Below are positions 13,473 to 58,089 of a stretch of 64,000 nt of DNA, in pieces. How positions within the stretch are numbered: position 1 is the first letter of the stretch; the number at the start of each line of letters is the position of its first letter. The stretch lies in assembly GCA_963727505.1 (NCBI GenBank), contig CAVSGP010000008.1, forward strand, positions 1-64,000, read 5' to 3'. Both the position numbers and the translations under genes were made by a program. A model generated the notes under the pieces. The model was not told the origin of the DNA and searched no databases. It worked only from the letters and a program-made list of their open reading frames with translations. This DNA comes from an uncultured Trueperaceae bacterium. Lineage in GTDB: Bacteria; Deinococcota; Deinococci; Deinococcales; Trueperaceae.

Positions 13473-13488
13473 GCCAGGATCGCCGCAC

Positions 13489-13588: not shown

Positions 13589-13628
13589 GTGGGCCGGGCC
13601 GGCAACGGCGGGCGTCGCTGCGAAGAAA

Positions 13629-15682: not shown

Positions 15683-15685
15683 CGC

Positions 15686-16969: not shown

Positions 16970-17017
16970 GGCCGGGCTCCTTGGAGCGGGGGTCGGGCGC
17001 AACGTCGCATCGACCGC

Positions 17018-42618: not shown

Positions 42619-42684
42619 AGATACTCACCGTTTCGGGCGCCCGACGCGCCCGGGAGTAGGGCAGCCGGGGCCCGCCGCCGACGG

Positions 42685-43716
42685 CTAGCGGGTGCGGGTG
42701 ACCTTGCGCAGGTGGCGGGGCGCGTCCGGATCGATCCCGCGCGAGCGCGCCAGGCGTTCGGCGAGGAGCTGGCCGGCCACGACCAGCACGAAGCTCGCCG
42801 TGACCTCGTGCAGCCCTTCGGGCAGCGCCGCCGACGCGGATGCGAGGCGCAACAGCGAGGGTGCGCCCGCCAGCACCGTCAGGTCGGCGCCGACCTCGCG
42901 CAGCCGCGAGGCGACCGCCTCGTTTCCACTCAGGCTGGCGTCCTCGGTCGCCAGCAGCAGCAGCGGGTCGCCGGCGTCCACCACCGCGATGGGGCCATGC
43001 TGGAACTCGGCGCTGGAGTACGCCTGGGCGTCGATGTAGGCCGTCTCCTTGAGCTTGAGGGCGGTCTCCAGCGCGGCCGCGAACGACAGGCCGCGCCCCA
43101 GCACGTAGAGCCCATCGGCGTGCGTCAGTCGCAGCGCCGCCCGCTCCAAGGCGTCCACGTCGGCCAGCAGGGTCTCCAGCGCGGGCGGGACGGCGTCGAG
43201 CGCAGCGCGCAGATCGTCGTCGGCCGCCCACTCCGCCACCAGTCGCGCCAGCACCATCATCTGGCTGGTGAAGGTCTTGCTCGCCGCCACCGCCTGTTCC
43301 TCGCCGGCGTGCTGTGCCAGCGCGTGGTCGGCCTGCGTCGCCAGATGGCTGCCCGGCTGGTTGGTCACGGCCAGCGTGAGCGCGCCGGCCTCCTGCAGCG
43401 CGGCCAGACCTTCCACCACGTCGGTGCTCTCGCCGGACTGGCTGACGCCGATGCCGAGCGCGCCCTCGAGCCGCAGGCGGGCGCCGTAGAGGGTGAGCAG
43501 CGAGGGCGGCACGCTCGCCACCGGCAACCCCAGGCTGCGGCCCGCCAGATAGGCGAAGAAGGTGACGGCGTTGTCCGACGAGCCACGCGCCAGCGTGGCG
43601 ACCAGCGGCACGTCGCGGCCGCGCAGCTCGCCCGCCAGCTCGGCAACGGACGGGTCCTGCAGGATGCGCGCCAGGACGGCGGGTTGCTCGGCGATCTCGC
43701 GTTCGAAGTGACTCAC
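42685..43716 (-). CDS. SIS-domain glucosamine-6-phosphate deaminase (NagB-II type)
   Basis: EIAEQP, ARGSSDNA, SQSGES, AVAASKTF, ALKLKET, EFQHGP, HLRKVTRT; no glutaminase domain. Confidence 0.88.
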   Translation of the reverse strand: MSHFEREIAEQPAVLARILQDPSVAELAGELRGRDVPLVATLARGSSDNAVTFFAYLAGRSLGLPVASVPPSLLTLYGARLRLEGALGIGVSQSGESTDVVEGLAALQEAGALTLAVTNQPGSHLATQADHALAQHAGEEQAVAASKTFTSQMMVLARLVAEWAADDDLRAALDAVPPALETLLADVDALERAALRLTHADGLYVLGRGLSFAAALETALKLKETAYIDAQAYSSAEFQHGPIAVVDAGDPLLLLATEDASLSGNEAVASRLREVGADLTVLAGAPSLLRLASASAALPEGLHEVTASFVLVVAGQLLAERLARSRGIDPDAPRHLRKVTRTR

Positions 43717-44600
43717 GGGTCCTCCCGTCGATCGTCCAGTGCGTCGCGCACGCGGTCGCGGTGGCGCGCGAGAAGTGTGCGGGCCACCTCCGGGTCGACG
43801 CCCGCCTCCAGCATCACGATGGCCTCGCGGATCCCCCAGGCGGCGGCGGCCAGGGAACGTTCGGCAGCCTCGCGCGGCGCGCCGGTGGCCGCGCACACCA
43901 CCTCCACCGCCCTTCGCCGGAGCTTGGCGTTGGTGGGGCGCATGCCGACCATCAGGTTCCGGTAGGCGCCGCCCGAGCGCACGAGCACGGCCGTGGACAG
44001 CGCGTTGAGGGCGATCTTCTGCGCCGTGCCTGCCGCCAGCCGGGTGGAGCCGGCCAGCACCTCCGGTCCGGTATCCAGCAGGACGCCGACCTCGGCCGCG
44101 GCGAGCAGCGGTGTGCCGGCGTTGTTGGCGATGCCGACGGTGAACGCGCCGCGTTCGCGGGCGGCGTGGATCACGCTGAGGGTGTAGGGCGTGCGGCCGC
44201 TGGCCGCGATGCCGAGGACCGCGTCGTCCGGCCCCAGGCCGGCGCCCGCGACGTCGCGGGCGGCCGCGTCCGTGTCGTCCTCGGCGTTCTCGACGGCCAC
44301 GGCGCCGGCGCTGCCGCCGCCGGCCATGAGCACCACGGTGCGCTCGAAGCCGAAGGTGGGCGGCAACTCCGCGGCGTCCTGCAGGGCGATGCGGCCCGAG
44401 GTTCCGGCGCCCGCGTACACGAGCCGACCGCCACGCGACAGGCGCGCCTCGACGCCGATCGCCGCCCGCTCCAGCGCGTCGCGTGCGTTCCACGCGGCAT
44501 CGACCGCGCGCTGGCCGCCATCGACGACGGCATCGACGATGCGGCCGAGGGACCAGACGTCGAGGTCCCGGTAGTTGGGGTCGCGGCCCTCCGTGGTCAT
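43713..44600 (-). CDS. murQ: N-acetylmuramic acid 6-phosphate etherase
   Basis: GAGTSGR..DAAELPPTFG, AVENAED, AASGRTPY, GPEVLAGSTRLAAGTAQK. Confidence 0.95.
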   Translation of the reverse strand: MTTEGRDPNYRDLDVWSLGRIVDAVVDGGQRAVDAAWNARDALERAAIGVEARLSRGGRLVYAGAGTSGRIALQDAAELPPTFGFERTVVLMAGGGSAGAVAVENAEDDTDAAARDVAGAGLGPDDAVLGIAASGRTPYTLSVIHAARERGAFTVGIANNAGTPLLAAAEVGVLLDTGPEVLAGSTRLAAGTAQKIALNALSTAVLVRSGGAYRNLMVGMRPTNAKLRRRAVEVVCAATGAPREAAERSLAAAAWGIREAIVMLEAGVDPEVARTLLARHRDRVRDALDDRREDP

Positions 44601-45346
44601 GGCTCGCCCGCCCGCAGGTGCAGCACCATGCGGTACATGTCGCCACGATACGCACTGCGCACGAACTCGAAGGGCCGGCCGTTGCCGTCGTACGTGGTGC
44701 GCTCGAGCTCGAGCACCGGGACGTCGCGGCCGATCTGCAGCAACCGGCACTCCTTGGCCGTCGGAAGGCGCGCGCCTACGGCCTGCCGCGCTCGTGCCGG
44801 ACGGATCCCGAACTGCGCTTCCAGGCAGCGGTAGAGGCTGCCGGTGCGCTCCAGCTCCTCGAGCGACAGCGCCGCGACATGCGGGGCCAGGTTCGCCGCC
44901 TGCAGGGCGAGCGGTGCGTCGTCGGCGCCGCGAAGGCGCTCGATGCGGAGCAGCGGTGCGCCCGCCGGCACGAGCAGGGCGGCGGCGGCGTCACGGTCGG
45001 CGGGGACCTCGGAGGACGCGAGCAGACGTGCGGTGGGATGGAACCCGAGGCCGCGGGCCTCGTCGGTGAAGCCCAGCACGCGATCGAGCACCTGTTCCAG
45101 GGGGTGGCCCCGGACGTACGTGCCCGAACCCTGGCGCTGCTCCACCAGGTCTCGGCGCTCGAGTTCCTCGAACGCGCGGCGCACGGTCATGCGCGACAGC
45201 CCGAGTTGCTGCGCCAGCTCGCGTTCGCTGGGCAGCGCCTGCCCGGGGCTGAGCGAGCCGTCCTCGATGGCCTGCTCCAGCGCCTGGCGGAGCTGCAGGT
45301 ACGCCGGCGTCGGCAGGGCCTTGTCGATGGCGGGCGCGAACGTCAT
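44597..45346 (-). CDS. GntR/HutC (UTRA) family regulator, NagR-like
   Basis: LPSERELA..SRMTVRRA..QGSGTYV; C-terminal UTRA (YRGDMY); alternative GTG start at 45364. Confidence 0.92.
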   Translation of the reverse strand: MTFAPAIDKALPTPAYLQLRQALEQAIEDGSLSPGQALPSERELAQQLGLSRMTVRRAFEELERRDLVEQRQGSGTYVRGHPLEQVLDRVLGFTDEARGLGFHPTARLLASSEVPADRDAAAALLVPAGAPLLRIERLRGADDAPLALQAANLAPHVAALSLEELERTGSLYRCLEAQFGIRPARARQAVGARLPTAKECRLLQIGRDVPVLELERTTYDGNGRPFEFVRSAYRGDMYRMVLHLRAGEP

Positions 45347-45591
45347 GGGACGCTCGGCCGCCACGGGGCTACGACCGTGACCATGCCACTATTGTACCAA
45401 TCCGCGCCGGGCCTCTATACTTGACTCGTCCAACGAGGGTGCCGCGCGAGGTGCAAGCGGCCAAGCCGCCGGAGTCGGCCGGGCGACGTCCGCTCCTCCC
45501 GAACGAACCGGCGGCGTGCTGTCCCCGACGGCGCCCTCGAGCGCTCTCCCGACCGCGATGCCGGCGGGGGAGGATCGATCGGAGGAAAGGT

Positions 45592-46824
45592 ATGAAGAGG
45601 ATCGGTGGCATGCGTCTCCTGGCCGTTCTGCTCGGCCTGGTCCTGCTTGGCAGCGCGGCAGCGCAATCGCTGTCGTTCTGGAGCTGGCGTACGGAGGACG
45701 TCGACGCCTACAACAGCTTCATCGCCGCGTTCCAGAAGGATCACCCCAACATCGACGTCACGTTCACGCCCTACAAGAACACCGAATACAACACCATCCT
45801 GTCGACCGCCATGCAAGGCGGCGGCGGCCCGGACATCGCCCACCTGCGCGCCTACGGCGGCATAGAACCACTGGCGGAGGCCGGCTTGCTGGTTCCCCTG
45901 GGCGACAAGGTGCCGGCGCTCGCCAACTTCGACCCCAACGTGCTCAAGGCCGCCACCGACCGCGCCGACGGCAAGGTCTACGGGGTGCCATTCGCGCTCC
46001 AGACCATCCAGGTCCTGTACAACAAGGACGTCTTCGCCAAGCTCGGCCTCAGCGAACCCAAGACCTGGCAGGAGTTCCTCGACGTCGCGCAGAAGATCAA
46101 GGCGTCCGGGATCGACGCGCTCGCCAACGGCACCAAGGACCCATGGACGGTCGAGACGCTGTTCGGCGGCGTGGCCCCGGCGTTCTACGGCTGCAACGCC
46201 TTCTACGACAAGATGGCGGCCGGCACGTCCACCTTCGAGGACCCCGCCTTCAAGGGCGCGCTACAGCGCATGGTCGACCTCGAGCCCTACCTGGCGAGCA
46301 ACTACCAGGGCGTGGCCTACTCCGACATGCAGTCGCTGTTCGCCTACGGCCAGGCCGGCATGCTCATCGGCGGCAGCTACGAGCTCGGCACGCTCGCCCA
46401 GCTCGCTCCCGACTTCAACGTCGGCTCGTTCCTGATCCCCAACGATCAGGGCCAGACCTGCGAGACCTTCTACGTCGACGGCTCGTACGGCATCAACACG
46501 GCCAGCAAGCACCAGGACGCCGACGTGCAGTTCATCAACTTCCTGGCGAGCAAGGCGTACGGTCAGATGTTCACCGACACCCTGAAGCAGATCTCGGCGG
46601 TACCCGGTGTCCTCCCGACCGATCCGGTACTGGCGCAGATGGCCGACCGGATGCACAGCGAAGGCACGCCCTACCTGATGCTCACGCTCTTCCGCTACGG
46701 TCAGCCCTCGGGCTCGACGCTGTTGCAAAACGAGATGCAGGCCGTGCTGGCCGGTAGCGAGACCGTCGACCAGGCGGCCGCCAACATCCAGCGCGGGGTG
46801 GCGACCTGGTACACCTTCCAATAG
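45592..46824 (+). CDS. Sugar ABC substrate-binding protein (candidate amino-sugar/disaccharide binder)
   Basis: RBS; signal peptide; GGGPDI, YGVPFA, YNKDVF, PKTWQEF. Confidence 0.9.
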   Translation: MKRIGGMRLLAVLLGLVLLGSAAAQSLSFWSWRTEDVDAYNSFIAAFQKDHPNIDVTFTPYKNTEYNTILSTAMQGGGGPDIAHLRAYGGIEPLAEAGLLVPLGDKVPALANFDPNVLKAATDRADGKVYGVPFALQTIQVLYNKDVFAKLGLSEPKTWQEFLDVAQKIKASGIDALANGTKDPWTVETLFGGVAPAFYGCNAFYDKMAAGTSTFEDPAFKGALQRMVDLEPYLASNYQGVAYSDMQSLFAYGQAGMLIGGSYELGTLAQLAPDFNVGSFLIPNDQGQTCETFYVDGSYGINTASKHQDADVQFINFLASKAYGQMFTDTLKQISAVPGVLPTDPVLAQMADRMHSEGTPYLMLTLFRYGQPSGSTLLQNEMQAVLAGSETVDQAAANIQRGVATWYTFQ

Positions 46825-46857
46825 CCCGGGTGGACGCGCGCATCGTGTCCCCCGCGT

Positions 46858-46887
46858 GGTGGGGTCGGGCTTCGGCCCGACCCCACC
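46858..46887 (+). terminator. cUUCGg tetraloop hairpin after the binding-protein gene
   Basis: ggtggggtcgggc-ttcg-gcccgaccccacc. Confidence 0.7.
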
Positions 46888-46951
46888 CTCCTGATGGAGC
46901 AGCCGTGCCGGCAGGCCCGCTCCGGCCCGCCCGGGCGACGGGCGCTGCCCG

Positions 46952-47881
46952 ATGACGGGCGCGCGGGTGTGGTTCCGTCGCCACGGTCACCTGGTGGTGT
47001 TCCTGGCGCCGGGGTTGCTCCTCTACGGGCTGTTCATGGCCTACCCGCTGCTCACGTCGCTGTCGTACAGCCTGTCGGACTGGCACGGCCTGCTGCGCGG
47101 CGCCTTCTCGGGCTTCGCCAACTTCACCAAGGTCCTGACGCAGTGGCCGTACAACGTGCGCTTCTGGGGCGCGTTGAGTCACAACGCCCTGTTCTTCTTG
47201 TTGACCTTCCTGATCCAGTCCACCCTGGGGCTGTTCCTGGCCGTGCTGCTGAGCCGCAAGTGGCGCGGCTTCGCCTTCTTCCAGGCGGCATATTTTCTTC
47301 CCTACACGATGTCGATGGTGGTCGTGGGCTTCCTCTGGCTGCTGCTGCTCAACCCCACCTGGGGCCCCGTGGCACACGGCCTCAGGCTGGTGGGCCTGGG
47401 CGAGTGGGTGCAGCCGTGGTTGGGGCAACGCGGCACGGCCCTCGTCACCGTGATCCTGGTCAACTCCTGGCACTGGCTGGGCTTCCCGGTGCTGGTCTTC
47501 ATGGCCGCCATCCAGGGCATCCCGCGCGAGTTCTACGAGGCCGGACTGGTGGACGGCGCCAACGACTGGCAGGGCTTCCGCTTCATCACCTTGCCGTTGT
47601 TGCTCCCCAGCCTCGCCATGATGTCGATCCTCACCTTCATCTGGGACTTCAACGCCTTCGAGCTCGTGTTCGTCATGCAGGGTGCGTCGGGGTCGCCGAA
47701 CTACGCCACCGACCTGCTGGCGACCCTCTTCTACCGGACCGCCTTCGGGGACCCCACCACCGGCGGCGAGCCCGGGCAGATCGGCCTGGCCTCGGCCATC
47801 GGCGTGCTGATGCTGATCATCATCGGTGCCGCCTCGGCCTTCGGCGTGCGCTTCACCCAGCGCAGCCAGACGGAGTATTGA
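46952..47881 (+). CDS. Sugar ABC permease
   Basis: IPREFYEAGLVDGA EAA loop; ITLPLL. Confidence 0.92.
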   Translation: MTGARVWFRRHGHLVVFLAPGLLLYGLFMAYPLLTSLSYSLSDWHGLLRGAFSGFANFTKVLTQWPYNVRFWGALSHNALFFLLTFLIQSTLGLFLAVLLSRKWRGFAFFQAAYFLPYTMSMVVVGFLWLLLLNPTWGPVAHGLRLVGLGEWVQPWLGQRGTALVTVILVNSWHWLGFPVLVFMAAIQGIPREFYEAGLVDGANDWQGFRFITLPLLLPSLAMMSILTFIWDFNAFELVFVMQGASGSPNYATDLLATLFYRTAFGDPTTGGEPGQIGLASAIGVLMLIIIGAASAFGVRFTQRSQTEY

Positions 47882-47882
47882 C

Positions 47883-48746
47883 ATGCTTCCCCGCGCCCCT
47901 ACGGCCCGGTCGCGCCCGCCAACAGCGCGCGTGCTCTCCCGCCTGCTGATCTACCTGGTGCTCGTGCTGCTGGCGCTGGGCTTCCTCTACCCCATCGCGC
48001 TGATGGTGCTCGACGCCTTCAAGACGACACCCGAGATCTTCCGGAGCCCCTTCGGGCTGCCGTCGCACGTGGGCCTGGAGACCTTCCGCGAGGTCTGGCG
48101 CCGTGCCCACTTCGGCCTCTACCTGCGCAACAGCGTCCTGGTGACCGGAGGCTCGCTGGCGGTGCTGCTGGCCTGCGCGGCGCCCGCCGCCTACGCCATC
48201 GCCCGCTACCGCTTCCCGGTGCGGGGCCTGATCTTCCTGTTCTTCCTTGCCGGAATCATGGTACCGATCCGGCTCGGCATCCTCCCGCTCTATCTGCTGA
48301 TGAAGCACCTGAGTCTGCTCGACACGCCGTTCTCGCTGATCCTCACGTACGCCGCGAGCGGCATGCCGATGTCGGTGTTCCTGCTGAGCACCTTCTTCCG
48401 AACGCTCCCCAGCGATCTGGAGGACGCCGCGCGCATCGACGGCTGCAGCGAGTACCGCACTTTCTGGAGCATCATGCTGCCGCTGGTGCGCCCCGCCGTC
48501 GCCACCGTGACGATCGTCAACGTCGTGCCCTGGTGGAACGACTTCTTCTTCCCGCTGCTGTTCCTGCAGAGCAACACCTGGAAGACGGTGCCGCTGGGCA
48601 TGCAGATCTTCTTCGGTCAGCACCTGACGAACTGGAGCCTGGTGTTCGCCGGCATGCTGATGTCCAGCCTTCCCCTGCTTGTCGTCTACCTCCTGATGTC
48701 GCGGCAGTTCATCTCCGGCCTGACGTCGGGCGCGCTGAAGGGCTGA
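47883..48746 (+). CDS. Sugar ABC permease
   Basis: LEDAARIDGC, WNDFFFPL, GLTSGALKG. Confidence 0.92.
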   Translation: MLPRAPTARSRPPTARVLSRLLIYLVLVLLALGFLYPIALMVLDAFKTTPEIFRSPFGLPSHVGLETFREVWRRAHFGLYLRNSVLVTGGSLAVLLACAAPAAYAIARYRFPVRGLIFLFFLAGIMVPIRLGILPLYLLMKHLSLLDTPFSLILTYAASGMPMSVFLLSTFFRTLPSDLEDAARIDGCSEYRTFWSIMLPLVRPAVATVTIVNVVPWWNDFFFPLLFLQSNTWKTVPLGMQIFFGQHLTNWSLVFAGMLMSSLPLLVVYLLMSRQFISGLTSGALKG

Positions 48747-48751
48747 GCTCC

Positions 48752-51019
48752 ATGGCGCCGATCGTCGCGCTCGGGATCGACCGCCTGGTGACCGACCCCG
48801 AGGTCTGGTTGCGGGGGCGCCGGGTGGCGCTGCTCGCCAACCATGCCTCGCTCACCTCCGAACACCGGCCCAGCGTGGACGCGCTGGGAGAGGCTCTGGG
48901 CGGCGGCCTGACGGCGTTGCTGACCCCCGAGCATGGGGCGAGCGGCTTCGAGGAGGATGCCACCGCCGTCCCGGACGGGCGTGACGCCCGCACCGGTCTC
49001 CCCGTCCACAGCCTCTACGGGCCGCGACGGCGACCCGACCCCGAGCTGCTGCGCCGCCTCGACGCGGTCGTGGTGGACCTGCGGGACGTTGGCGTGCGTT
49101 GCTACACGTACGCCACCAGCGTGGCCCTGCTGCTCGAAGCCGCTCGCGAGACGGGCACCGAGGTGCTGGTGTGCGACCGGCCGTCGTTGCTCGGCCCGCG
49201 GGTCGACGGTCCCGCGCTCGACAGCGCGCGCCGTTCGTTCCTGGCGTATCTCGACGTTCCTCTCCAGCACGGCCTCACGCTGGGCGAGCTCGCCCGCCGC
49301 CATGCGCGCCGGCTCGGCGGCGCGCCGCTGCGCGTGATCGCGGTCGAGGGGTGGCGCCGCGGCCAGCCGGATCCCGGGCCCTTCGTGCCCCCATCGCCCG
49401 GTCTGCCCTCGGCGGCTTCCGTGGCGTTGTACCCGGGGCTGGTCGCCCTCGAGGGCACCGGGCTCTCCGAGGGCCGTGGCACGCCGCTCCCCTTCGAGCT
49501 GGTGGGCGGTCCGGACGTCGACGGGCACGCGCTGGCCCGGGAACTGAACGCCCTCGGGCTGGGGGGCGTGTGGGCGCGGCCGGTGGCGTTCCGCCCGGAC
49601 AGCGGCAAGCTCATGGGGCTGGCGTGCCAAGGGGTGCAGCTCCACCTCTCCGACCCCGCCGCGCTGCGGCCGCTCGAGCTCGGCGCCGCCGTGCTGCGCG
49701 CGCTGTTCGCGGCCGGGAAGGTGAGCTGGCGGCGGTCGGACGCCATGCCGTGGGCGCAGGCGCCGGACGCGGGGCGGCCCTGGCACGAGCCGGTGGAGGG
49801 CTTGCTGGTCGATGCCCTGTTGGGCGACGACAGTTTCCGTGCGGTGGCGGAGGGGCGGGTGTCGTTCGCGGATGCGGCCGGGCTCTGGGCGGAGCAGCAC
49901 CACGCCTACCTGGAGGCGTTGGACGGCGACCTGCTGTACCGTCCTGCACCTGCTGCATGGCCTGCAGGGACGTCGCAGGTGGCGTCGCGGGTGGCGCCGC
50001 ATGGTCCAGCGCTCGGAGCGAGTCCGGCGCGGGCGGCGCCTCCGAGCGACGCGCGTCCGGCAGGGAACGACGCGCCGGCGGCGAGCCAAGGGACGCGTCA
50101 GGGCGGCCCGCTCGGCCTCGGCATCGACGCGGGCGGCTCGAGCACGCGCTGGCGGCTCGAGGGCCCCGCCGGGGCGGTGGCGGAGGGGCGGTTGCCAGCA
50201 CTCGCCGGGCACCTCTACGACGACGCCGGGCGCAGCGATGCCGGCGCCCGGTTGAGCGAGCTGGCGGCGGCGGTGGCCGCCGCCTCGGCCGAGCCGCCGA
50301 CGGCGGTGGTGGCCGGCGTCACGGGCCTGGCGCAGGCAGGCGCAGAAGCCACCTGGCTGCGTCGCGAGCTGGCCGCCGGGATCGGCCTTGCCGAAGCGGC
50401 GGTGACCGTGCTCGACGACATCGAGCTGGCCCTCAGGGCGGCCTTCGCGGGGGACGACGGTGTGCTGGTGTACGCCGGCACCGGTGCGATCGCCGTCGCC
50501 CGCGCGGGCGGTCAGCGGCTTCGCGCGGGTGGCCACGGCTACCTCCTGGACGACGATGGAGGGGGCTTCTCGATCGGGCGCGCGGCGCTCCGCGCCGTGC
50601 TGCGCCAGACCGACGCCCGTGGCAGCACGCCGGACACACCTCTCGCGCACCGGCTCTACGGCGCGATCGGGGGTGCCGACTGGGACAGGGTGCGCGCCTA
50701 CGTCTACGGCGGCGGTCGCGGCGCCGTGGCGGCGCTGGTGCCGCTCGTCGTGCAGGCGGCGGCCGACGGGGACGGCGAGGCGCGCGCGATTCTGACGTGG
50801 GCCGGAGAGGAGCTCGCGCGCCTCGCCCGCCTCCTGCTCCAGCGCTGCGGCGAGCCGCGCCCGGTGGCTCTGGCAGGGGGGGTGGCCAAGGTCGGAGGCG
50901 CGCTCGAGGCGAGGTTCCGGGGCGCGCTGCCGGCGGGTACGGAAGTCCGCGTGCTCACGGACGAACCTGTCCGTGCGGCGGCCCGCCTGGCGTGGGTAGC
51001 AGCGCAGGGCGCGCGATAA
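48752..51019 (+). CDS. Fusion of a NamZ-like exo-beta-N-acetylmuramidase (DUF1343) and a BadF/BcrAD-type amino-sugar kinase
   Basis: N-terminal PEHG, SLYG..RRP, DLRDVGVRCYTY, HGLTLGELA, PSPGLP, SEGRGTPLPFELVG; Pro/Ala linker; C-terminal GIDAGGSST, AGTGA, RAGGHGYLLDDDGGG, LAGGV. Confidence 0.85.
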   Translation: MAPIVALGIDRLVTDPEVWLRGRRVALLANHASLTSEHRPSVDALGEALGGGLTALLTPEHGASGFEEDATAVPDGRDARTGLPVHSLYGPRRRPDPELLRRLDAVVVDLRDVGVRCYTYATSVALLLEAARETGTEVLVCDRPSLLGPRVDGPALDSARRSFLAYLDVPLQHGLTLGELARRHARRLGGAPLRVIAVEGWRRGQPDPGPFVPPSPGLPSAASVALYPGLVALEGTGLSEGRGTPLPFELVGGPDVDGHALARELNALGLGGVWARPVAFRPDSGKLMGLACQGVQLHLSDPAALRPLELGAAVLRALFAAGKVSWRRSDAMPWAQAPDAGRPWHEPVEGLLVDALLGDDSFRAVAEGRVSFADAAGLWAEQHHAYLEALDGDLLYRPAPAAWPAGTSQVASRVAPHGPALGASPARAAPPSDARPAGNDAPAASQGTRQGGPLGLGIDAGGSSTRWRLEGPAGAVAEGRLPALAGHLYDDAGRSDAGARLSELAAAVAAASAEPPTAVVAGVTGLAQAGAEATWLRRELAAGIGLAEAAVTVLDDIELALRAAFAGDDGVLVYAGTGAIAVARAGGQRLRAGGHGYLLDDDGGGFSIGRAALRAVLRQTDARGSTPDTPLAHRLYGAIGGADWDRVRAYVYGGGRGAVAALVPLVVQAAADGDGEARAILTWAGEELARLARLLLQRCGEPRPVALAGGVAKVGGALEARFRGALPAGTEVRVLTDEPVRAAARLAWVAAQGAR

Positions 51020-51061
51020 CGCTTCGATACCGCCGGGTCTGGCGCGCGGCCGCGAGCCTAC

Positions 51062-52045
51062 TCAGCCGTGCGCCAGACCCTCCCGCACGAAGCGGAGCTG
51101 CTCCAGCACGTGGAGCGTCTCGCCGCCCTCGTGCCCGTTGAAGCGGTACAGGCGCAGGGTCTTGGGTCCGGCGTAGTGGTTGTAGGTGGCGTACACCGTC
51201 GACGGCGGTGAGATGAGGTCCATCAGGCCCGCCGAGAACAGGGCGCGCGCCGAGGCCCGGGCCGCGAAGTTCATGCCGTCGAAGTAGGCCAGGGTCGCGA
51301 AGACGGCGCCCACCTTGCCCTTGTGGACCTTGCAGTAGCCGGCGATCTCGGCGTAGGGCGCAGCGTCGGTGATGGTGGCGGCGCGCTCGAAGTGGCACAG
51401 GAAGGGCACGTCCGGCAACGCCAGCGGCAGGTCGGGCACCAGGCCCGCCAGCGCCAGCGTGAGGCCGCCGCCCTGGCTCCGGCCGGTGGCCGCCACGCGT
51501 GCCGGGTCGACCGCCGGATGGGCGCGCAGGGTGCCCAGCGCCCGGACCGCGTCGGTGTACAGGCGACGGAAGTAGTAGGTCTCCGGGTCGAGGATGCCCG
51601 CCGTCATGAAGCCGGGATGGTGCGGCCCGGTGGCGTTGGGGTCGTCCATGGGATCGGCCGTGGCTCCCTCCAGCCAGGCGCTCCCCTGGCCGCGGGTGTC
51701 CATCACCAGCGTGGCGAAGCCGGCGCTGGGCCACAGCAACCAGTCGGCGGGGAAGCCGCGACCGCCTCCGTAGCCGATGAACTCCACCATGCCCGGTAGC
51801 GGCCCGTCGCGGAGCTTCGGCAAGAGCAGCCAGCCGCGCACCGGCTGGCCCGCGAAGCCGGCGAAGGTGACGTCGAAGGCGTCGATGGTTGCCAGACCGG
51901 CGTCGAACGGTTCGAAGCGCGGCTCCCAGGCGCGTGCTTCGGCGTCGTCGAGGGTTGCTTTCCAGAAGGCATCGAAGTCATCGGGTGCGGTGAGGGGCGG
52001 GAGGTAGCGTTCGAGTTCCTCCAGGGGCAGGTCGAAGACAGCCAT
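51062..52045 (-). CDS. Acetylxylan esterase / cephalosporin-C deacetylase (CE7)
   Basis: FDLPLEEL, GYGGGRG, DTRGQG, GRSQGGG, PPSTV, NGHEGG. Confidence 0.93.
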   Translation of the reverse strand: MAVFDLPLEELERYLPPLTAPDDFDAFWKATLDDAEARAWEPRFEPFDAGLATIDAFDVTFAGFAGQPVRGWLLLPKLRDGPLPGMVEFIGYGGGRGFPADWLLWPSAGFATLVMDTRGQGSAWLEGATADPMDDPNATGPHHPGFMTAGILDPETYYFRRLYTDAVRALGTLRAHPAVDPARVAATGRSQGGGLTLALAGLVPDLPLALPDVPFLCHFERAATITDAAPYAEIAGYCKVHKGKVGAVFATLAYFDGMNFAARASARALFSAGLMDLISPPSTVYATYNHYAGPKTLRLYRFNGHEGGETLHVLEQLRFVREGLAHG

Positions 52046-52126
52046 GGGGCTTCCTTCCTCGCGCGGTGTGCCGCGGGCACGCCCAGGCTACCCGGTCGAG
52101 CGGCGCTTCTCGGCGCTGCGTGCGGG

Positions 52127-52314
52127 TCACACGTCTCGCCCGCGCAGGGTGGGGTCCAGCAGGTCCCGCATGCGCGGCATGCTTGTGCGTGGGCTGTCCT
52201 ATCACGTCTCGTCCCGCGCAGGGTGGGGTCCAGGAGGTCCCGCATGCGCGGCATGCTTGTGCGTGGGGCCTACACGTCCCTCCCGCGCAAGGTCGGGTCC
52301 AGGAGGTCCCGCAT
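52127..52314 (-). repeat. Three tandem copies of the oppC 3' end (69-74 bp period)
   Basis: Copies at 52270-52314, 52199-52245 and 52127-52171, separated by a shared CCCACGCACAAGCATGCCGCGC spacer. Confidence 0.9.
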
Positions 52315-53118
52315 GCCGTCGCCGAAGAGATTGAAGCCCAGCGAGGCCAGCAGGATGGCGAGTCCCGAGACGATCGACACCCAGGGCGAGAGGAGCATGT
52401 AGTCGCGGCTCTGCGAGAGCATCAGGCCCAGCGAGGGGGTGGGCGGCTGCGTGCCGAGGCCGAGGAAGCTCAGGCTGGCCTCGACCAGGATGGCGGTGGA
52501 GAGCGAGAGCGTGGTCTGCACCAGGATGGGCGCAAGGATGTTGGGCAGCACGTGGCGCATGATGATGCGCCCACCTCCCGCTCCCACCGCGCGGGCCGCG
52601 GCGACGTAGTCCCACGACAGCACTGTCAGTGCGGGCCCACGGGCGAGCCGCGCGAAGATCGGCGTGTAGACGATGCCGATCGCCAGCGCCGTGTTGGTGC
52701 CGCCCGGACCCAGCACGGCCAGCACCGCGATGGCCAGCAGGATGATGGGGAATGCCAGCAGCACGTCCATGAGGCGCATCAGCAGGCGGTCGACCCAGCC
52801 GCCGAGGTACGCGGCGACAAGGCCGATGGTGGAGCCCAGCAACGTCGACAGGGCCACGGCACCGAACGACACCGCGATGGAGGTGCGGTAGCCGAAGAGG
52901 ATGCGCGCCAGGGTGTCCCGGCCGAAGTTGTCCGTGCCGAGCAAGTGGTGGAGGCTGGGTCCCTCGAAGCGCTCCAACACGCTCTGGTGCAGAGGGTCGA
53001 TGCCGACGACCCAGGGTCCGACGGAAGCGGCCAGCGCGACCAGGACAGCCAGCACGAAGCCCAGCATGCCGACGCGGTTGCGCCACAACCGCGCCAGGAA
53101 GTGACGCACGGGCGCCAT
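52270..53118 (-). CDS. Peptide ABC permease, OppC/DppC-like
   Basis: HLLGTDNFGRD, HVLPNIL, EASLSFLGLG, GDGMRDLLDP. Confidence 0.93.
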   Translation of the reverse strand: MAPVRHFLARLWRNRVGMLGFVLAVLVALAASVGPWVVGIDPLHQSVLERFEGPSLHHLLGTDNFGRDTLARILFGYRTSIAVSFGAVALSTLLGSTIGLVAAYLGGWVDRLLMRLMDVLLAFPIILLAIAVLAVLGPGGTNTALAIGIVYTPIFARLARGPALTVLSWDYVAAARAVGAGGGRIIMRHVLPNILAPILVQTTLSLSTAILVEASLSFLGLGTQPPTPSLGLMLSQSRDYMLLSPWVSIVSGLAILLASLGFNLFGDGMRDLLDPTLRGRDV

Positions 53119-54068
53119 CACCCGTACTCCACCCGCGGGTCGATCCAGGCGTAGGCCAGGTCGACGAGCAGGTTGACCACCACGAACACCGCGGTGATGG
53201 CGAGGACGATGCCCTGGATGAGCGGGTAGTTGCGCTGGTTGATGGCGCCGATGATCAGACGTCCGATGCCGGGGATGGCGAACACCTGCTCGATGACCAC
53301 CACGCCCGACAGCAGGTATCCGAGCTGCACGCCGATCACCGTGACGACCGGGATCATGGCGTTGCGCAGGGCGTGCTTGTAGAGCACCGGCCGTTCCGCC
53401 AGGCCCTTGGAGCGCGCCGTGCGGACGTAGTCGCTGTTGAGCACGTCGAGCAGGCTCGAGCGCAGGATGCGCGTCAGCCCCGCGATCATCGGTAGCGACA
53501 CGGCCACCACCGGCAGCGCCATGCGCGCCAGGTTGCCGAGCGGATCCTGGCCGAACGGGACGTACCCGATCGCCGGCCAACCCGGCAGATAGAGCGAGAA
53601 GACGAGCAGCATCAGCACGCCGACCCAGAAGGTCGGCAGCGTCAATCCCACGATCGACAGCACCCGAACCACCAGGTCGCTGGCGCTTCCGCGCGCGCGG
53701 GCCGACAGGACCCCGAGTGGGAAGGAGAGCACCAGCGCCAGCAGCAGCGCCAGTCCCGTGATCTCGAGGGTGGCGGGCGCGCGCGCCAGGATCTCGGCGC
53801 TCACCGGCCGCCCGGTCCAGATGCTGGTACCCAGGTCGCCGTGCAGCACGCCCGTCAACCAGCGCCAATATTGCGCGTGGATGGGCAGGTCGAGGCCCAG
53901 GCTGTGGCGCAGCGCGGCGACCCGGTCGGGCGTGATGTCGGTGTTGGCCCCCAGCATGATCTCGACGGCGTCCCCGGGGATGAAGCGCACCATCAGGAAC
54001 ACCAGGATCGAGACGCCGAGTAGCACGAAGGCGAGGTCGATGAGGCGGCGGGCGATGTAACCGATCAT
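53118..54068 (-). CDS. Peptide ABC permease, OppB/DppB-like
   Basis: PGD, GDLGTS, DYVRTARSKGL, HALRNA, DLAYAWIDPRV. Confidence 0.93.
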   Translation of the reverse strand: MIGYIARRLIDLAFVLLGVSILVFLMVRFIPGDAVEIMLGANTDITPDRVAALRHSLGLDLPIHAQYWRWLTGVLHGDLGTSIWTGRPVSAEILARAPATLEITGLALLLALVLSFPLGVLSARARGSASDLVVRVLSIVGLTLPTFWVGVLMLLVFSLYLPGWPAIGYVPFGQDPLGNLARMALPVVAVSLPMIAGLTRILRSSLLDVLNSDYVRTARSKGLAERPVLYKHALRNAMIPVVTVIGVQLGYLLSGVVVIEQVFAIPGIGRLIIGAINQRNYPLIQGIVLAITAVFVVVNLLVDLAYAWIDPRVEYG

Positions 54069-54116
54069 GCGGGCACGGGTGTCATGCGCGAACCTTGAGC
54101 GCTCGGGGGCGCGAGA

Positions 54117-54144
54117 GGGGTGGGGGCGCACACGCCCCCACCCC
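54117..54144 (-). terminator. Hairpin after the binding-protein gene
   Basis: ggggtgggggcg-caca-cgcccccacccc. Confidence 0.65.
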
Positions 54145-54189
54145 AGGCTAGCCCGAAGGGCCGCTTCGAGCGCGACGGGAACGGCGGCG

Positions 54190-55690
54190 CTACGGCAGGC
54201 TCACCTCGCGCAGGTAGCGCAGGCCGCGCGTGGGCATCTGCTGGAAGCCCTGGACGTTGTCGCGCAGGCCCGTGAAGAGCGTCCCGTAGGCGATGTGGAC
54301 GATGGGTCCGGTGCAGGCGAGCTGCTTCTGGAGGTTGTCGTAGATCGCCTGGCGCTGGCCCTTGTCGGCGGTGGTGCGGCCCTGGTCGAGCAGGGTGTCG
54401 ACCGACGGGTCGCTGAACTTGAAGATGTTGGTCGAGCCGCCGGTGTGGAACGTGCGGTAGAGGTAGCCGTCGGGGTCGGTGGAGCCGCCGTTCAGGCTCA
54501 CGAACATGTCGAAGTTCGAGTTCTTCCAGTCCTGGACGAACTTGCCGAACTCCTCCACATCGACCTTGGCGTCGATGCCGACCTGCGCGAGCTGCGCCTG
54601 GAGCACCTGGGCGGTGTCGGACACCTCCTTGATGGTGCCGAAGGTGATGATGGTGGTCTTGAAGCCGTTGGGGTAGCCGGCGTCGGCCAGCAACTGCTTG
54701 GCCTTCGCCACGCTGGGCTGGTAGCAGGGGAACTGCGAGACCGGCACGGCCCAGTCCTTCAGCGCCGGGCTGAGTGGGCCGCCCGGCACGGCGTTGCCGA
54801 GGTAGACGGCCTGCACGATGTCGGAGCGGTTCACCGCGTAGTTGATGGCCTCACGCACGCGCGGGTCGTCGAAGGGCTTGCGGCTGACGTTGAGGCCGAG
54901 CAGCGAGTAGGCAAGATCTTGCGTGCCCATCACGGTGACGCCGCCGGCGTTCTTGAGCGTCTGCGCGGTGACGGGGTCGACCGTGGGGAGGAGCTGGTAG
55001 GTGCCGGTGCGCAGCCCCGCGGCCCGGGTGGACGCCTCGGGCACGATGTTGAACTTGAGCTCGGCCACCTTGGGCTCGCCCGGCCGGTAGTAGTCGGGGT
55101 TCGCCTTGAGCAGCACGTAGGTGTCGGGGACGACCTTGTCGAGCTCGAAGGGGCCGGTGCCGACCGCCACCTTCTGCAGGTTGCCGTTGGCCTCGACGAC
55201 CTCCTTGGGCACGACGTAGAGGTTGGTGAGGTTGGCGAGGAAGGGAGCGAACGGCTCCTTCAGCGTGAAGCGCACCTCGTACGGTCCCGTGGCCTCGATC
55301 TTGGACACCTCGCTGAAGCGGCTGGCCTGCGGCGAGCCGGTGTTGGGGTCCATGATGCGGTCGTAGGAGTAGACGACGTCGGCCGACGTCATCTGCGCGG
55401 CCGTTGTGGAACTTGACGCCCTGGCGCAGCTCGAACGTGTAGCTCAGGCCGTCGGGCGACACCGACCACGACGTCGCCAGCGCGGGCTCGAGCTGGAGCT
55501 TGCTGTTGACCTCCAGCAGCCCCTCGTAGATCTGGTCGACCACGGCGAAGGACGAGAAGGCCGTGACGATGTCGGGGTCGAGACCGACCGGCGATTGGTC
55601 GACGGCGATCTCGAGCGTTCCCTGTTGCGCATACGCCAGGCTCATGGCGGCGACGAGCGCTGCTACGAGCAGACCGATACGGATTCGCAT
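54190..55690 (-). CDS. Peptide ABC substrate-binding protein (family 5), split by a 1-nt frameshift near 55393-55398
   Basis: AAGGAGG RBS; signal peptide; PALATSW..YTFELRQGVKFHNGR continues as MTSADVVYS..GTGPF in the adjacent frame. Confidence 0.88.
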
Positions 55691-55771
55691 ACCAACCTCC
55701 TTCTGCGATGGTGGCAGGGAAGCCCGTCCCCCACGCAAGCCACGGCTGCCGACGGAACAATTGCGACGCGC

Positions 55772-55815
55772 CTAGTGTACCATTCCCAGACCAGTCGATT
55801 CAATCGTGCTAGCGT
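55772..55815. promoter_or_regulatory. Divergent promoter region with TGGTAC-like direct repeats
   Basis: Minus strand TTGAAT-N18-TACACT containing TGGTCT-N5-TGGTAC; plus strand TGcTAGCGT 7 nt before the ATG at 55823. Confidence 0.5.
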
Positions 55816-55822
55816 TGCGGCC

Positions 55823-56908
55823 ATGAACCATGCAGCAGCGGCCGAGGCCCGGGGCCGGGACGCCGTGGCAGCCGCCCTCGAGGCGGCGGTCGCGGACGGG
55901 ACGGTGCCGGGAGGCGTGCTCCTGGTCGGCGGCGCCGACCACGTCTGGGACCCCGTCGTCGCCGGCGTACGGCGCTACGGGGGGGAGCGCGTGACGCGCG
56001 ACACCCGCTACGACCTCGCCTCGCTCACCAAGGTCGTCGGCTGCCTGAGCGCCCTGTTGCACCTCCTCGACGCCGGTGCGCTGACCCTGGACGACCCGGT
56101 CCGGAAGTTCTTCAGCAACGCCGGCTGGTTCCAGGAACCCTCGCTCGGCGACGTTCGCCTCGAAGCGCTCGCCACCCACGTGTCGGGCCTGCCGGCGTGG
56201 CGGGCGCTGTTCGCGCAGGTCACAGGGCGCCGCATGGCCCTGGCCAGCGTGTTGCAGACGCCGCTCGAAGGGCCCGCCGACCGCTTCCGCTACTCCGATC
56301 TCGGGGTCATCGTCCTGACGGCCGTCATCGAGCGCGTCGCCGGGGAGCGGATCGATGCGCTGCTGGCGCGCGAAGTCTTCGAGCCGCTCGGCATGGACCG
56401 CACCGGCTACGGCCCGCTCGACCCCGGCCTCCCCGTCGCCGCCACCGAGGACGACGGCCTGCGCGGTGGTGTCCTGCAGGGCGTCGTCCACGACGAGAAC
56501 GCCTGGGCGTTGGAGGGTATCTCCGGGCACGCCGGCCTGTTCGCCCCGGCTTCCGACGTGCTCGCCTTCGGCCTGGCCTGGCTGCGGCTCCAGGCGCCGT
56601 TCGCCTCGGAGGGCACGCTCCGGTCGGCCCTGCGCGATCGCTCCGGCGGCGAGGGCGCTCGTCGCGGCCTGCTGTGGCGCCTGGGCGAGCCCGATGGGTT
56701 CTTCGGGCCGGAGACGACGGAGGCGGCGTTCGGGCACACCGGCTTCACCGGCACCAGCCTGGTGGTGGAGCCGCGTCAGGGCTGGACGGCCGCCCTCCTC
56801 ACCAACCGCGTGCACCCGACCCGCGAGGCGGGTGCCGGGATCGACGACCTGCGCAGGCGCGTGCACGGCCTGGTGGCCGGCGCGTTCGACGAGGAGGCGC
56901 TGCGATGA
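55823..56908 (+). CDS. Beta-lactamase-fold serine hydrolase; AmiE-like MurNAc-L-alanine amidase by context
   Basis: DLASLTK (SxxK), YSDLG, GVVHDENA, GHAGLF, GHTGFTG, LTNRVHP; no signal peptide. Confidence 0.8.
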   Translation: MNHAAAAEARGRDAVAAALEAAVADGTVPGGVLLVGGADHVWDPVVAGVRRYGGERVTRDTRYDLASLTKVVGCLSALLHLLDAGALTLDDPVRKFFSNAGWFQEPSLGDVRLEALATHVSGLPAWRALFAQVTGRRMALASVLQTPLEGPADRFRYSDLGVIVLTAVIERVAGERIDALLAREVFEPLGMDRTGYGPLDPGLPVAATEDDGLRGGVLQGVVHDENAWALEGISGHAGLFAPASDVLAFGLAWLRLQAPFASEGTLRSALRDRSGGEGARRGLLWRLGEPDGFFGPETTEAAFGHTGFTGTSLVVEPRQGWTAALLTNRVHPTREAGAGIDDLRRRVHGLVAGAFDEEALR

Positions 56909-58083
56909 CGGATTCCGAACAGGGTGCGGCCGTTCCCGGCGATCTGGCAGCGATGACGGTGCTCGGCCTCATGTCGGGCACCTCGCTGGACGGGGTGGAC
57001 ACGGTCACCGTACGCCTGGCGCGGCGCGGCGGCCGGCTCGACTGGGAGGTGCTGGCGCGCGCTTCCCACCCCTACGACGATGCCCTGCGCGAGCGCTTGC
57101 AGCGCGCCATCGATCCGGCGCGCTCCGACGTGATCCTGTTGACCGAGCTCCACCAGGAGGTGGGGCGGGCCTACGCCGACGCGGCGGCTTCGGCCGCCGC
57201 GCGCCACCCGCTCGACCTGGTGGGCCTCTCGGGCCAGACCGTGTACCACATCCCCCGAGCCGACGAGGAACGGGGCTGGCACGTGGTGAGCACCCTGCAG
57301 CTGGGGGAGGCGAGTGTCGTGACCGAGCGTTGCTCGGTCGTGACGGTGTCGGACTTCCGGCAGGCGGACCTGGCGGCGGGCGGTCAGGGGGCGCCGATGG
57401 TGCCCTTCGCCGACCTACAGCTCTACCACCGGCCAGGGGAGCGGATCGCCGTGCAGAACATCGGCGGCATCGGCAACGTCACCGTGCTGCCGGCCGACGG
57501 CGACCCGGCGGCGGTGCAGGCGTTCGACACCGGTCCCGGCAATTGCCTGATGGACGAGGCGATGGAGTTGCTGTTCGACGAGCCGTTCGACGATCAGGGG
57601 CGGGTGGCGGCCTCGGGGCGCGTTCTGGGCGACGCCCTGCAGCGGCTGCTCTCCGAGCCCTACTTCGAGCTCCCGCCACCCAAGACCACCGGCCGCGAGC
57701 TGTTCACGCTTCCGCGCGCCATGGAGCGCGGCGGTCTCGAGGGCGCGGCCCCCGCCGACGTGGTCGCGACCCTGAACGCGTTCACCGTGGCGTCGATCGC
57801 GCAGGCGTACGAACGCCACGTGCTGCCCGGAGGCCTCGATGAGGTGCTGATCGCGGGCGGCGGCGCCCGCAACCCGGTCCTGGTCGAGGGACTGCGCCGG
57901 CGCCTGCCGGTGCGGGTCCGTACCTTCCGGGAGGCCGGCTACCAGGACAAGGACCGCGAGACGCTGGCGATGGCGGTGATGGCGTTCATGGCGTTCCACG
58001 GGGAGCCGAACGTGCTGCCCGCAGCGACGGGCGCGCGGCATCCGGTGATCGCGGGGAAGGTGTGCCGGCCCTACCGGGGTTGA
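56905..58083 (+). CDS. anmK: Anhydro-N-acetylmuramic acid kinase
   Basis: GLMSGTSLDGVD, GQTVYH, DFRQADLAAGGQGAP, NIGGIGN, FDTGPGN, PPKTTGRE. Confidence 0.96.
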   Translation: MTDSEQGAAVPGDLAAMTVLGLMSGTSLDGVDTVTVRLARRGGRLDWEVLARASHPYDDALRERLQRAIDPARSDVILLTELHQEVGRAYADAAASAAARHPLDLVGLSGQTVYHIPRADEERGWHVVSTLQLGEASVVTERCSVVTVSDFRQADLAAGGQGAPMVPFADLQLYHRPGERIAVQNIGGIGNVTVLPADGDPAAVQAFDTGPGNCLMDEAMELLFDEPFDDQGRVAASGRVLGDALQRLLSEPYFELPPPKTTGRELFTLPRAMERGGLEGAAPADVVATLNAFTVASIAQAYERHVLPGGLDEVLIAGGGARNPVLVEGLRRRLPVRVRTFREAGYQDKDRETLAMAVMAFMAFHGEPNVLPAATGARHPVIAGKVCRPYRG

Positions 58084-58089
58084 AGCGCG

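Follow-up and report, generated by a model that had tools for sequence, protein, structure and literature searches.

Most of what is known about peptidoglycan recycling comes from Proteobacteria and Bacillota. In Bacillus subtilis, one regulated locus, murQ-murR-murP-amiE-nagZ-namZ (ybbC), converges on N-acetylmuramic acid 6-phosphate (MurNAc-6P); AmiE, NagZ and NamZ are described as secreted, and N-acetylmuramic acid (MurNAc) is taken up through MurP, a transporter of the phosphotransferase system (PTS) (PMC8054146, PMC5061867, PMC10653849). In Escherichia coli, the AmpG-NagZ-AmpD-LdcA-AnmK-MurQ route processes anhydromuropeptides in the cytoplasm to anhydroMurNAc, which is then handled by AnmK and MurQ (PMC5061867). 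For the Deinococcus-Thermus lineage, nothing on peptidoglycan recycling was found in the literature searched. The locus described here, from that lineage, occupies positions 42685–58083 of a window of 64,000 nucleotides (the whole stretch of DNA analysed; contig CAVSGP010000008.1 of assembly GCA_963727505.1) and encodes two ATP-binding cassette (ABC) importers, a fusion of NamZ-like domains with a kinase domain, a PF00144 hydrolase, AnmK and MurQ. The host belongs to the Deinococcales, and its named relatives are Trueperaceae.

The locus appears to be a real, conserved and probably co-regulated site of peptidoglycan-sugar salvage. The favoured reading, which is given a probability of about 0.68, is that of a co-regulated regulon for the uptake of peptidoglycan fragments and the cytoplasmic breakdown of their sugars, with two import-and-process modules (A and B) converging on MurQ. 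Its genes are testable candidates for muropeptide import without AmpG, stem-peptide removal without AmpD and MurNAc phosphorylation without a PTS.

Gene units, synteny and a shared promoter motif

The genome to which the window belongs (G000) is a draft of 3.26 Mb, 97.4% complete. The G+C content of the sequence, about 70%, gives rise to abundant long spurious open reading frames; genes were chosen by third-position G+C, Pfam and NCBIfam matches and start-codon context. A first-pass annotation of the window had proposed four gene units, and all four were recovered where it had placed them, using Pfam and NCBIfam models and a reading of the start codons; its limits are exact and coincide with the stop codons of the SIS gene (42685) and anmK (58083). 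Unit 1, on the minus strand, consists of a gene for a GntR/HutC-type regulator with a UTRA effector domain (44597–45346; Pfam GntR 78.4 bits, UTRA 135.5 bits), murQ for MurNAc-6-phosphate etherase (43713–44600) and a gene for a SIS sugar-phosphate isomerase/deaminase (42685–43716). Unit 2, on the plus strand, encodes a family-1 (CUT1) sugar binding protein (45592–46824; Pfam SBP_bac_1 137.1 bits), a permease of MalF/UgpA type (46952–47881) and one of MalG/UgpE type (47826–48746, true start uncertain), both with Pfam BPD_transp_1 and NCBIfam matches, and a 755-residue NamZ-kinase protein in one frame (48752–51019). Unit 3, on the minus strand, comprises genes for a family-5 binding protein with a Sec signal peptide (54190–55693), an OppB/NikB/GsiC-like permease (53118–54068; Pfam BPD_transp_1 and BPD_transp_1_N, NCBIfam) and an OppC/DppC/GsiD-like permease (52270–53118; Pfam BPD_transp_1 and OppC_N, NCBIfam), and then, 224 nt further on, a CE7 acetyl esterase (51062–52045; Pfam AXE1 348.6 bits over residues 1–320). 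Unit 4, on the plus strand, contains the gene for the PF00144 serine hydrolase, a proposed (anhydro)MurNAc-peptide amidase (55823–56908; Pfam Beta-lactamase 162 bits, cut-off 27), which overlaps anmK (56905–58083). Start/stop overlaps join gntR to murQ (ATGA), murQ to the GTG start of the SIS gene (GTGA), oppB to oppC (TGATG) and the PF00144 gene to anmK (ATGA).

Synteny was followed in 61 genomes (60 relatives and G000 itself) by tblastn of the window proteins against regions of about 20 kb surrounding the matches; the genomes are kin, which lowers the weight of the counts below, as these describe linkage and not independent events. The full cluster is found in three genomes of the same genus (G003, G006 and G007) and in one of a sister genus (G019). 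Units and order are the same in G003; G006 has the same units plus an unrelated insert of 3 kb between the CE7 gene and oppC; one half is inverted in G007, with CE7 at the opposite end of the cluster; and all units are present in G019, where CE7 follows the kinase in the same orientation. Two clean modules are seen in G020, one with the sugar importer and namZ, the other with the family-5 importer divergent from PF00144-anmK and the kinase nearby, and G033 has the sugar importer, namZ and the kinase, with CE7 alongside. The co-conservation of the four units, which had been posed as a question for comparison with relatives, thus holds in four of them, and the modules are linked more widely.

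Other counts point in the same direction. Of the 61 genomes, 37 have both MurQ and AnmK and 16 have neither; eight are discordant, three of which are less than 90% complete. The fusion-protein query matched 41 of the 61 genomes, the NamZ half being matched in 19 of these. Seventeen other genomes encode the family-5 binding protein (E ≤1e-90), at most 5 kb from anmK in 13 of them and on another contig in four. Kinases orthologous to that of the fusion stand directly beside murQ in G047, G049, G059 and G060, which represent three other families. In G059, a GntR/UTRA gene is divergent from an SBP5-OppB-OppC-SBP5-NamZ operon that ends in an unfused, signal-less NamZ, so the scheme of ABC import followed by cytoplasmic NamZ recurs with a different transporter family. 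Given synteny in four other genomes and linkage of the modules in two to three families, chance is a very poor explanation of the arrangement.

A further genome of the genus (locus L026, G001 C14:1-17000) keeps gntR-murQ-SIS beside a different sugar ABC system (30–43% identity), an unfused NamZ (41% identity) and, nearby, the kinase as a separate gene; this looks like a module replacement at the same site.

Each divergent promoter region contains an operator-like sequence: CTATTGTACCAATC at 45389–45402, between gntR and the sugar importer, and a block, CTAGTGTACCATTCCCAGACCAGT, at 55772–55795, between the family-5 importer and the PF00144 gene. A motif is common to both, with CTAGTGTACCATTC (55772–55785) as the counterpart of the first sequence. 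The form TA[GT]TGTACCA has only two copies in the whole genome, one per divergent promoter (the second at 55773), and TGTACCAWT occurs three times, against 6.4 expected from base composition, two of the three being these promoter sites; the case is weakened because these counts include the two regions from which the motif had been drawn, and because no copy is found upstream of the CE7 gene. Both motifs lie within blocks of conserved sequence in otherwise divergent spacers: CCACTATTGTACCAATC, followed 18 nt on by CTATACT, is present in all five genus-level relatives aligned and degenerate in G019, and GTACCATT.C.AGACCA is kept in five of six sequences aligned, including G019 and G020, with ATACCATT in G007; this second block has no other copy in the genome. 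The spacer between gntR and SBP5 in G059 has no GTACCA or AGACCA core. On the opposite strand, the second block shows TGGT...TGGT half-sites, reminiscent of operators of HutC/DasR type. The shared motif is suggestive of co-regulation of the two promoter regions, and the GntR/HutC regulator would control both; its pairing with these operators, like the effector of its UTRA domain, is a prediction from sequence.

The region between the first operator and the sugar binding-protein gene (45403–45591) contains a conserved promoter-like block about 165 nt upstream of the start codon, implying a long G+C-rich leader, and the leader itself holds a block conserved among relatives (CGAGGGTGCC). No Rfam family matched positions 41800–58300 at the E-value threshold, so no known riboswitch is seen in this leader. 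A scan for the sigma-70 consensus gave no promoter-like sites, and terminator-like sites were at chance level.

The four units could also be mere neighbours, without common control or pathway, whose order is kept by close kinship. The limitation of complete four-unit synteny to the genus and one sister genus, the distance of about 445 kb between the modules in G020 and the separation of the family-5 binding protein from anmK on different contigs in four of 17 genomes would agree with this. However, the cluster survives an inversion in G007 and an insertion in G006, a motif otherwise absent from the genome is common to both promoters, and MurQ, AnmK and the kinase co-occur or are jointly missing across five families. 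Coincidental neighbourhood is considered very improbable.

Module A: sugar importer, NamZ-kinase fusion and CE7 esterase

In the proposed regulon, the CUT1 importer of module A would take up peptide-free glycan fragments with MurNAc at the non-reducing end, of the type MurNAc-GlcNAc (where GlcNAc is N-acetylglucosamine). The cytoplasmic NamZ domain would free MurNAc, and the fused kinase would phosphorylate MurNAc, and perhaps GlcNAc, at O6, giving MurNAc-6P. The CE7 esterase would probably strip O-acetyl groups first, because MurNAc with an acetyl group at O6 could not be phosphorylated there; this role is purely conjectural.

The fusion protein matches NamZ_N with 184.1 bits (cut-off 26.9) and NamZ_C with 110.3 bits (cut-off 25), which places it in the NamZ exo-beta-N-acetylmuramidase family (DUF1343; PF07075 and PF20732), and NamZ is present in a single copy in the genome. 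A low-complexity linker joins the NamZ domains to a BadF/BadG-type N-acetylhexosamine kinase. Residues P59-E60-H61-G62 and R242 (the arginine of GRGT) are kept and are invariant in 13 diverse NamZ sequences aligned. In the B. subtilis enzyme, the putative catalytic Glu92 is located 58 residues past the domain start and is accompanied by Arg279 (PMC8054146); E60 is equated with Glu92 by the matching offset from the domain start, not by direct alignment with the B. subtilis protein.

Signal peptides were called from the appearance of the N-terminus together with a hydrophobicity scan (maximum Kyte–Doolittle value over 12 residues). Signal-peptide-like N-termini belong only to the two binding proteins (maxima 3.00 and 2.75), the six enzymes reaching at most 1.72. 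The fusion begins at the catalytic domain (MAPIVALGIDRL...), with a maximum of 1.55 and without a signal peptide; the unfused NamZ of the sister-family genome G059 likewise has none. In the 13-protein alignment, nothing precedes the catalytic domain in the five members of the Deinococcales group, hydrophobic N-terminal extensions are seen in four standalone homologues of other lineages and two of the three PF00144-NamZ fusions have a signal- or lipoprotein-like start. The absence of signal peptides from the NamZ-like and PF00144 proteins, reported when the window was first read, was borne out, and to judge from their N-termini, the NamZ-kinase, PF00144 and CE7 enzymes are cytoplasmic.

The kinase half matches BcrAD_BadFG (PF01869) with 67.8 bits (cut-off 31.5), and its ASKHA motifs GIDAGGSST, AGTGA and GGHGYLLDDDGGGFSIGR line up with those of PDB entries 2e2n and 8zo3. 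The kinase fold is clear, and specificity for MurNAc is predicted. Among 120 listed homologues of the fusion protein in the protein database (of 291 at E ≤0.001), 13 have the kinase domain, all at least 62% identical, whereas in 66 NamZ is fused to PF00144 instead. A search of genome contigs with the fusion protein returned only two distant matches to the kinase domain, in metagenome-assembled genomes of Rhodospirillales, which are uninformative on synteny. A single open frame spans both halves in four genomes of one genus (G000, G003, G006 and G007); the halves are adjacent in different frames in G019 and G033, as separate genes or frameshifted fusions, and about 445 kb apart in G020. CE7 lies near namZ or the kinase in G003, G005, G006, G007, G019 and G033. 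The fusion would be a compact bifunctional enzyme for the production of MurNAc-6P from wall disaccharides. Elsewhere in the genome (G000 C10:46055-50499), a second, unfused BadF-type kinase, 35–39% identical to the fused one, is encoded beside a CUT1 binding protein and a permease pair; this region may be a GlcNAc or chitobiose locus.

The family-1 binding protein has the N-terminus MKRIGGMRLLAVLLGLVLLGSAAAQ (hydrophobicity maximum 3.00), a Sec signal peptide without a lipobox. Its closest solved structures are oligosaccharide binders, including the chitin-oligosaccharide binder NagB2. Such a generic relationship would also suit another target of module A, for example chito-oligosaccharides or a fragment of an O-acetylated exopolysaccharide, that is, an acetylated hexosamine oligosaccharide other than a wall fragment; in that case the NamZ-like domain would act as an exo-hexosaminidase with another specificity, and the kinase on GlcNAc. 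The kinase is closer to the broad-specificity hexokinase 2e2n (2.2e-19) than to MurK, represented by the MurNAc/GlcNAc kinase 8zo3 (1.9e-14), and its sole NCBIfam match is the GlcNAc kinase model NagK_SO3507, at 66.8 bits, far under the equivalog cut-off of 370. No GH73 glucosaminidase that could make MurNAc-first fragments was found in the genome, and no link between CE7 enzymes and MurNAc was found in the literature searched. CE7 enzymes are known for the deacetylation of acetylated xylo-oligosaccharides and cephalosporin. On the other hand, the NamZ of B. subtilis is MurNAc-specific and does not cleave pNP-GlcNAc, as reported in PMC8054146; module A has a divergent promoter in common with gntR-murQ, orthologous kinases stand directly beside murQ in three other families, and the second BadF-type kinase on C10, with its own sugar ABC system, could serve GlcNAc. 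A target of this other kind is therefore regarded as quite improbable.

Module B: Opp-type importer, PF00144 hydrolase and AnmK

In module B of the proposed regulon, the Opp-type importer would take up muropeptides containing anhydroMurNAc, the PF00144 hydrolase would cut off the stem peptide, with an enzyme of the AmiE family thus filling the role of AmpD, and AnmK would convert anhydroMurNAc to MurNAc-6P. AnmK scores 407.2 bits against NCBIfam NF007148, above the equivalog cut-off of 387, and 296.4 bits against Pfam AnmK.

The serine-hydrolase motifs of the PF00144 protein, read from an alignment, are S67-L-T-K70, Y157-S-D159 and H305-T-G307. Its top NCBIfam match is PBP4B, at 105.7 bits (below the cut-off of that model), followed by a model at 43, and it shows 35% identity, across 345 residues, with the PF00144 domain of a protein in which this domain is fused to NamZ. 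The gene amiE is filed under PF00144 in Table 1 of PMC10653849. The first description of the protein as 'AmiE-like' stands as membership of PF00144 together with gene context; amidase activity is predicted. An ortholog (E ≤1e-50) is found in 23 other genomes and is beside anmK in all 23, with match ends within 260 nt of each other in 22 and a spacing of 2.3 kb in G012; in two sister-family genomes among the 23 the pair is divergent. The relatives of the protein in databases bear generic names only, and its tight pairing with anmK suggests a function for the widespread short, signal-less proteins labelled 'serine hydrolase' or 'beta-lactamase family'.

In this assembly, the family-5 binding protein matches SBP_bac_5 in two separate frames. 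The gene is frameshifted at 55394–55396, the protein reading '...FHNGRA' in one frame and 'MTSADVVYSYDRI...' in another. The contigs of all four public runs compared, from two studies, have one base fewer at this place; that of run X1 shows no other difference over 55100–55499, and X1 may be the source sample and hence not independent. The frame is intact in all five relatives inspected (G003, G006, G007, G019 and G020). Gene decay was ruled out by the one-base-shorter form in the four runs together with the intact relatives; the break is probably an assembly error or a private variant, the former being probable because none of the four runs has the extra base.

The closest solved structures of the family-5 binding protein are of DppA/GsiB/HbpA type (E 1e-55 to 1e-68), ahead of MppA (3e-29), and these relatives bind dipeptides, glutathione or haem. 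Module B might accordingly handle free stem peptides or ordinary oligopeptides, with the PF00144 protein as a cytoplasmic D-stereospecific peptidase or DD-carboxypeptidase and AnmK as a neighbour only in that both answer wall turnover. PBP4B, which the PF00144 protein matches best, figures in the reference list of PMC5061867 as a DD-carboxypeptidase, and LdcA was not found in the genome, so another enzyme must trim peptides containing D-amino acids. Against this stand the adjacency of the PF00144 gene and anmK in 23 of 23 other genomes, together with their ATGA overlap here; the binding-protein gene of G057, which is directly divergent from anmK; the failure to find in the genome an AmpD-type amidase that could otherwise free anhydroMurNAc for AnmK; and the PF00144-NamZ fusions in 66 of 120 listed homologues, which tie the subfamily to MurNAc. 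A peptide-only role for module B is judged unlikely, and uptake of anhydromuropeptides is preferred.

Strong G+C-rich hairpins are located at 46858–46887 and 54117–54144, directly after each of the binding-protein genes and inside the operons. Hairpins so placed are commonly regarded as stabilising the binding-protein segment of ABC transcripts. The 3′ end of oppC and the spacer between oppC and the CE7 gene are spanned by a tandem repeat (52117–52316, Tandem Repeats Finder; period 74, 2.8 copies, 87% matches), by which the end of oppC is copied into the spacer; the same spacer is only about 70 nt long in G003. Either a genuine duplication at this site or an artefact of assembly could account for the repeat; a dispersed element was ruled out, as blastn showed no other copy in the genome.

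Another Opp-family transporter serves a sugar locus of this genome (L030, G000 C9:520000-539999, positions 6508–17496), where a LacI regulator, a family-5 binding protein and OppB/OppC-type permeases are encoded with a single OppD/F-type ATPase gene, a xylose-isomerase-like TIM-barrel protein and a glycosidase with GH3 and Fn3-like domains. This sole GH3 gene of the genome was considered as NagZ and rejected: its product, with GH3 N- and C-terminal and Fn3-like domains in a LacI/Opp-type sugar locus, is BglX-like.

Proposed convergence on MurQ and comparison with described systems

At the point of convergence, MurQ would turn MurNAc-6P into GlcNAc-6P, a NagA-like enzyme encoded elsewhere would yield GlcN-6P and the SIS enzyme would produce fructose-6P. 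MurQ passes two subfamily cut-offs (NF003915, 325.4 bits against 168; NF009222, 261.9 against 255) and has 248.1 bits against the older equivalog TIGR00274, below its cut-off of 302. The best NagA candidate stands alone on contig C5 and scores 211.5 bits, just under the cut-off of 225.65. The SIS enzyme, with two stretches of Pfam SIS and a resemblance to the C-terminal part of GlmS, plausibly works like NagB-II, although it is not filed as a member of that group. Three further SIS paralogues are present in the genome. Two of them (C1:28926-33769 and C5:141636-145653), 30–34% identical to that of the cluster, each adjoin another CUT1 system; the combination of SIS and ABC genes therefore recurs within this genome and is not restricted to amino sugars. 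The genome also encodes two SLT-domain lytic transglycosylases, which could supply anhydroMurNAc.

No ABC ATPase gene for either importer was found in a Pfam and NCBIfam scan of the locus. Genome-wide, OppB-type permeases occur at 16 loci (tblastn) against seven matches to the OppD/F C-terminal domain, and MalG-type permeases at 20 loci (tblastn) against two matches to the MalK-type TOBE_2 domain. Permease sets without ATPases being the rule in this genome, gene decay was ruled out as an explanation; the ATPases are shared genome-wide, and those of the two importers would be borrowed from elsewhere in the genome. The insert of about 3 kb between CE7 and oppC in G006 was considered as a source of the missing OppD/F and discarded, its genes encoding an unrelated DrrA-type ABC-2 ATPase and a helix–turn–helix protein.

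In the 97.4%-complete draft, AmpG, PTS EIIC, Amidase_2/AmpD and LdcA were not found, nor were GH20 and GH73; absence from a draft genome means not found and is no proof of absence. A family-5 binding protein with OppB/OppC-type permeases thus occurs in a genome without detected AmpG, and the first-pass annotation's proposal of uptake through ABC systems instead of AmpG or a PTS stands, with the cargo of the importers predicted. Its description of the locus as self-contained does not: ATPase genes are absent from the locus, NagA lies elsewhere, and NagZ, GH20 and GH73 were not found. Of its family assignments, AnmK (equivalog), MurQ (two subfamily models) and the NamZ, CE7, PF00144 and BadF families (Pfam cut-offs) were upheld, while 'NagB-II' and 'MurK-type' were reduced to family-level resemblance.

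The salvage reading has findings to contend with that weigh against it. The SIS enzyme reaches 217.5 bits against NagB_SO3506 (NF046059), about half of the cut-off of 430, and a similar 205.5 bits against GlmS models. No enzyme of NagZ type or other enzyme removing terminal GlcNAc was found in the genome. Without NagZ, GH20 or GH73, the removal of GlcNAc from GlcNAc-anhydroMurNAc is unexplained, as is a source of MurNAc-first fragments in the bacterium's own wall.

A broader proposal is put forward tentatively, and with more doubt than confidence: that Deinococcales of the Trueperaceae type salvage peptidoglycan without AmpG, NagZ, AmpD and LdcA by means of four replacements. An Opp-family importer would deliver anhydromuropeptides, and a cytoplasmic enzyme of the beta-lactamase fold would act as anhydroMurNAc-peptide amidase, a non-orthologous substitute for AmpD. 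A sugar-type importer would feed a bifunctional exo-muramidase-kinase, which would cleave MurNAc-GlcNAc and phosphorylate the freed sugar on one polypeptide. Finally, the CE7 esterase would remove 6-O-acetyl groups, opening O-acetylated foreign walls to use. As no GH73 was found in the genome, the NamZ branch would mainly feed on the walls of other bacteria; such scavenging, which the first-pass annotation had proposed alongside recycling of the bacterium's own wall, is a reasonable but unproven suggestion.

The flanks of the cluster are unrelated to it, with a PEPCK gene (40121–41875) on one side and genes for a CLC channel and ThiI (from 58090) on the other. Between the PEPCK and SIS genes, the plus strand (41956–42618) encodes a protein of 220 residues that has a membrane anchor at its N-terminus and matches nothing in Pfam. 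Its gene converges on the cluster, to which it probably does not belong, and is kept in this position in G001, G003, G005, G006, G007 and G019 (54–82% identity).

In the literature searched (supplements excluded), no description was found of a cytoplasmic NamZ, a NamZ-kinase fusion, NamZ in Deinococcus-Thermus, a conserved PF00144-anmK pair or this combination of units, in agreement with the earlier impression that the combination was undescribed. The closest counterpart is the B. subtilis locus, in which the same MurQ, NamZ and PF00144 (AmiE) families occur under common regulation and converge on MurNAc-6P. There, however, the hydrolases are secreted and MurNAc enters through MurP; here NamZ and the PF00144 protein have no signal peptides, two ABC systems are present, no PTS EIIC was found, and phosphorylation would be carried out by the fused kinase and AnmK. 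NagZ was not found either, and the regulator is of GntR/HutC type and not of MurR/RpiR type.

The cytoplasmic processing of anhydromuropeptides by way of AnmK and MurQ is shared, as proposed, with E. coli. AmpG, an AmpD-type amidase and LdcA were not found here, and by gene context the Opp-type importer and the PF00144 hydrolase occupy the corresponding positions; E. coli itself has a PF00144 protein, PBP4B (YfeW), encoded in its murQ operon (PMC5061867). In Agrobacterium tumefaciens, which belongs to a lineage lacking AmpG, an ABC importer of the Opp family and its family-5 binding protein, YejBEF-YepA, are described as taking the place of AmpG (PMC9790009). The present importer differs from YejBEF-YepA in that its locus contains no ATPase gene and that it is divergently paired with PF00144-anmK.

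MurK of Clostridium acetobutylicum and Tannerella forsythia, likewise of BadF/BadG type, is described as phosphorylating MurNAc at position 6 independently of a PTS and upstream of MurQ. The kinase of the present locus is fused to NamZ; its similarity to MurK is weak, and its specificity is predicted. The MurP-MupG system of Staphylococcus aureus also imports the whole MurNAc-GlcNAc disaccharide and splits it inside the cell (PMC8054146). In that bacterium phosphorylation takes place during PTS import, after which MupG cleaves MurNAc-6P-GlcNAc, whereas the order proposed here is ABC import, cleavage by NamZ and phosphorylation by the kinase. MupG and NamZ are described as complementary and mutually exclusive (PMC8054146).

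All component families of the locus are known, and earlier work has established MurNAc kinases that act without a PTS, muropeptide import by Opp-family transporters and the pathways of B. subtilis and E. coli. The novelty is thus one of arrangement, known enzymes being combined without a new kind of system, and the locus illustrates the modularity of a known pathway.

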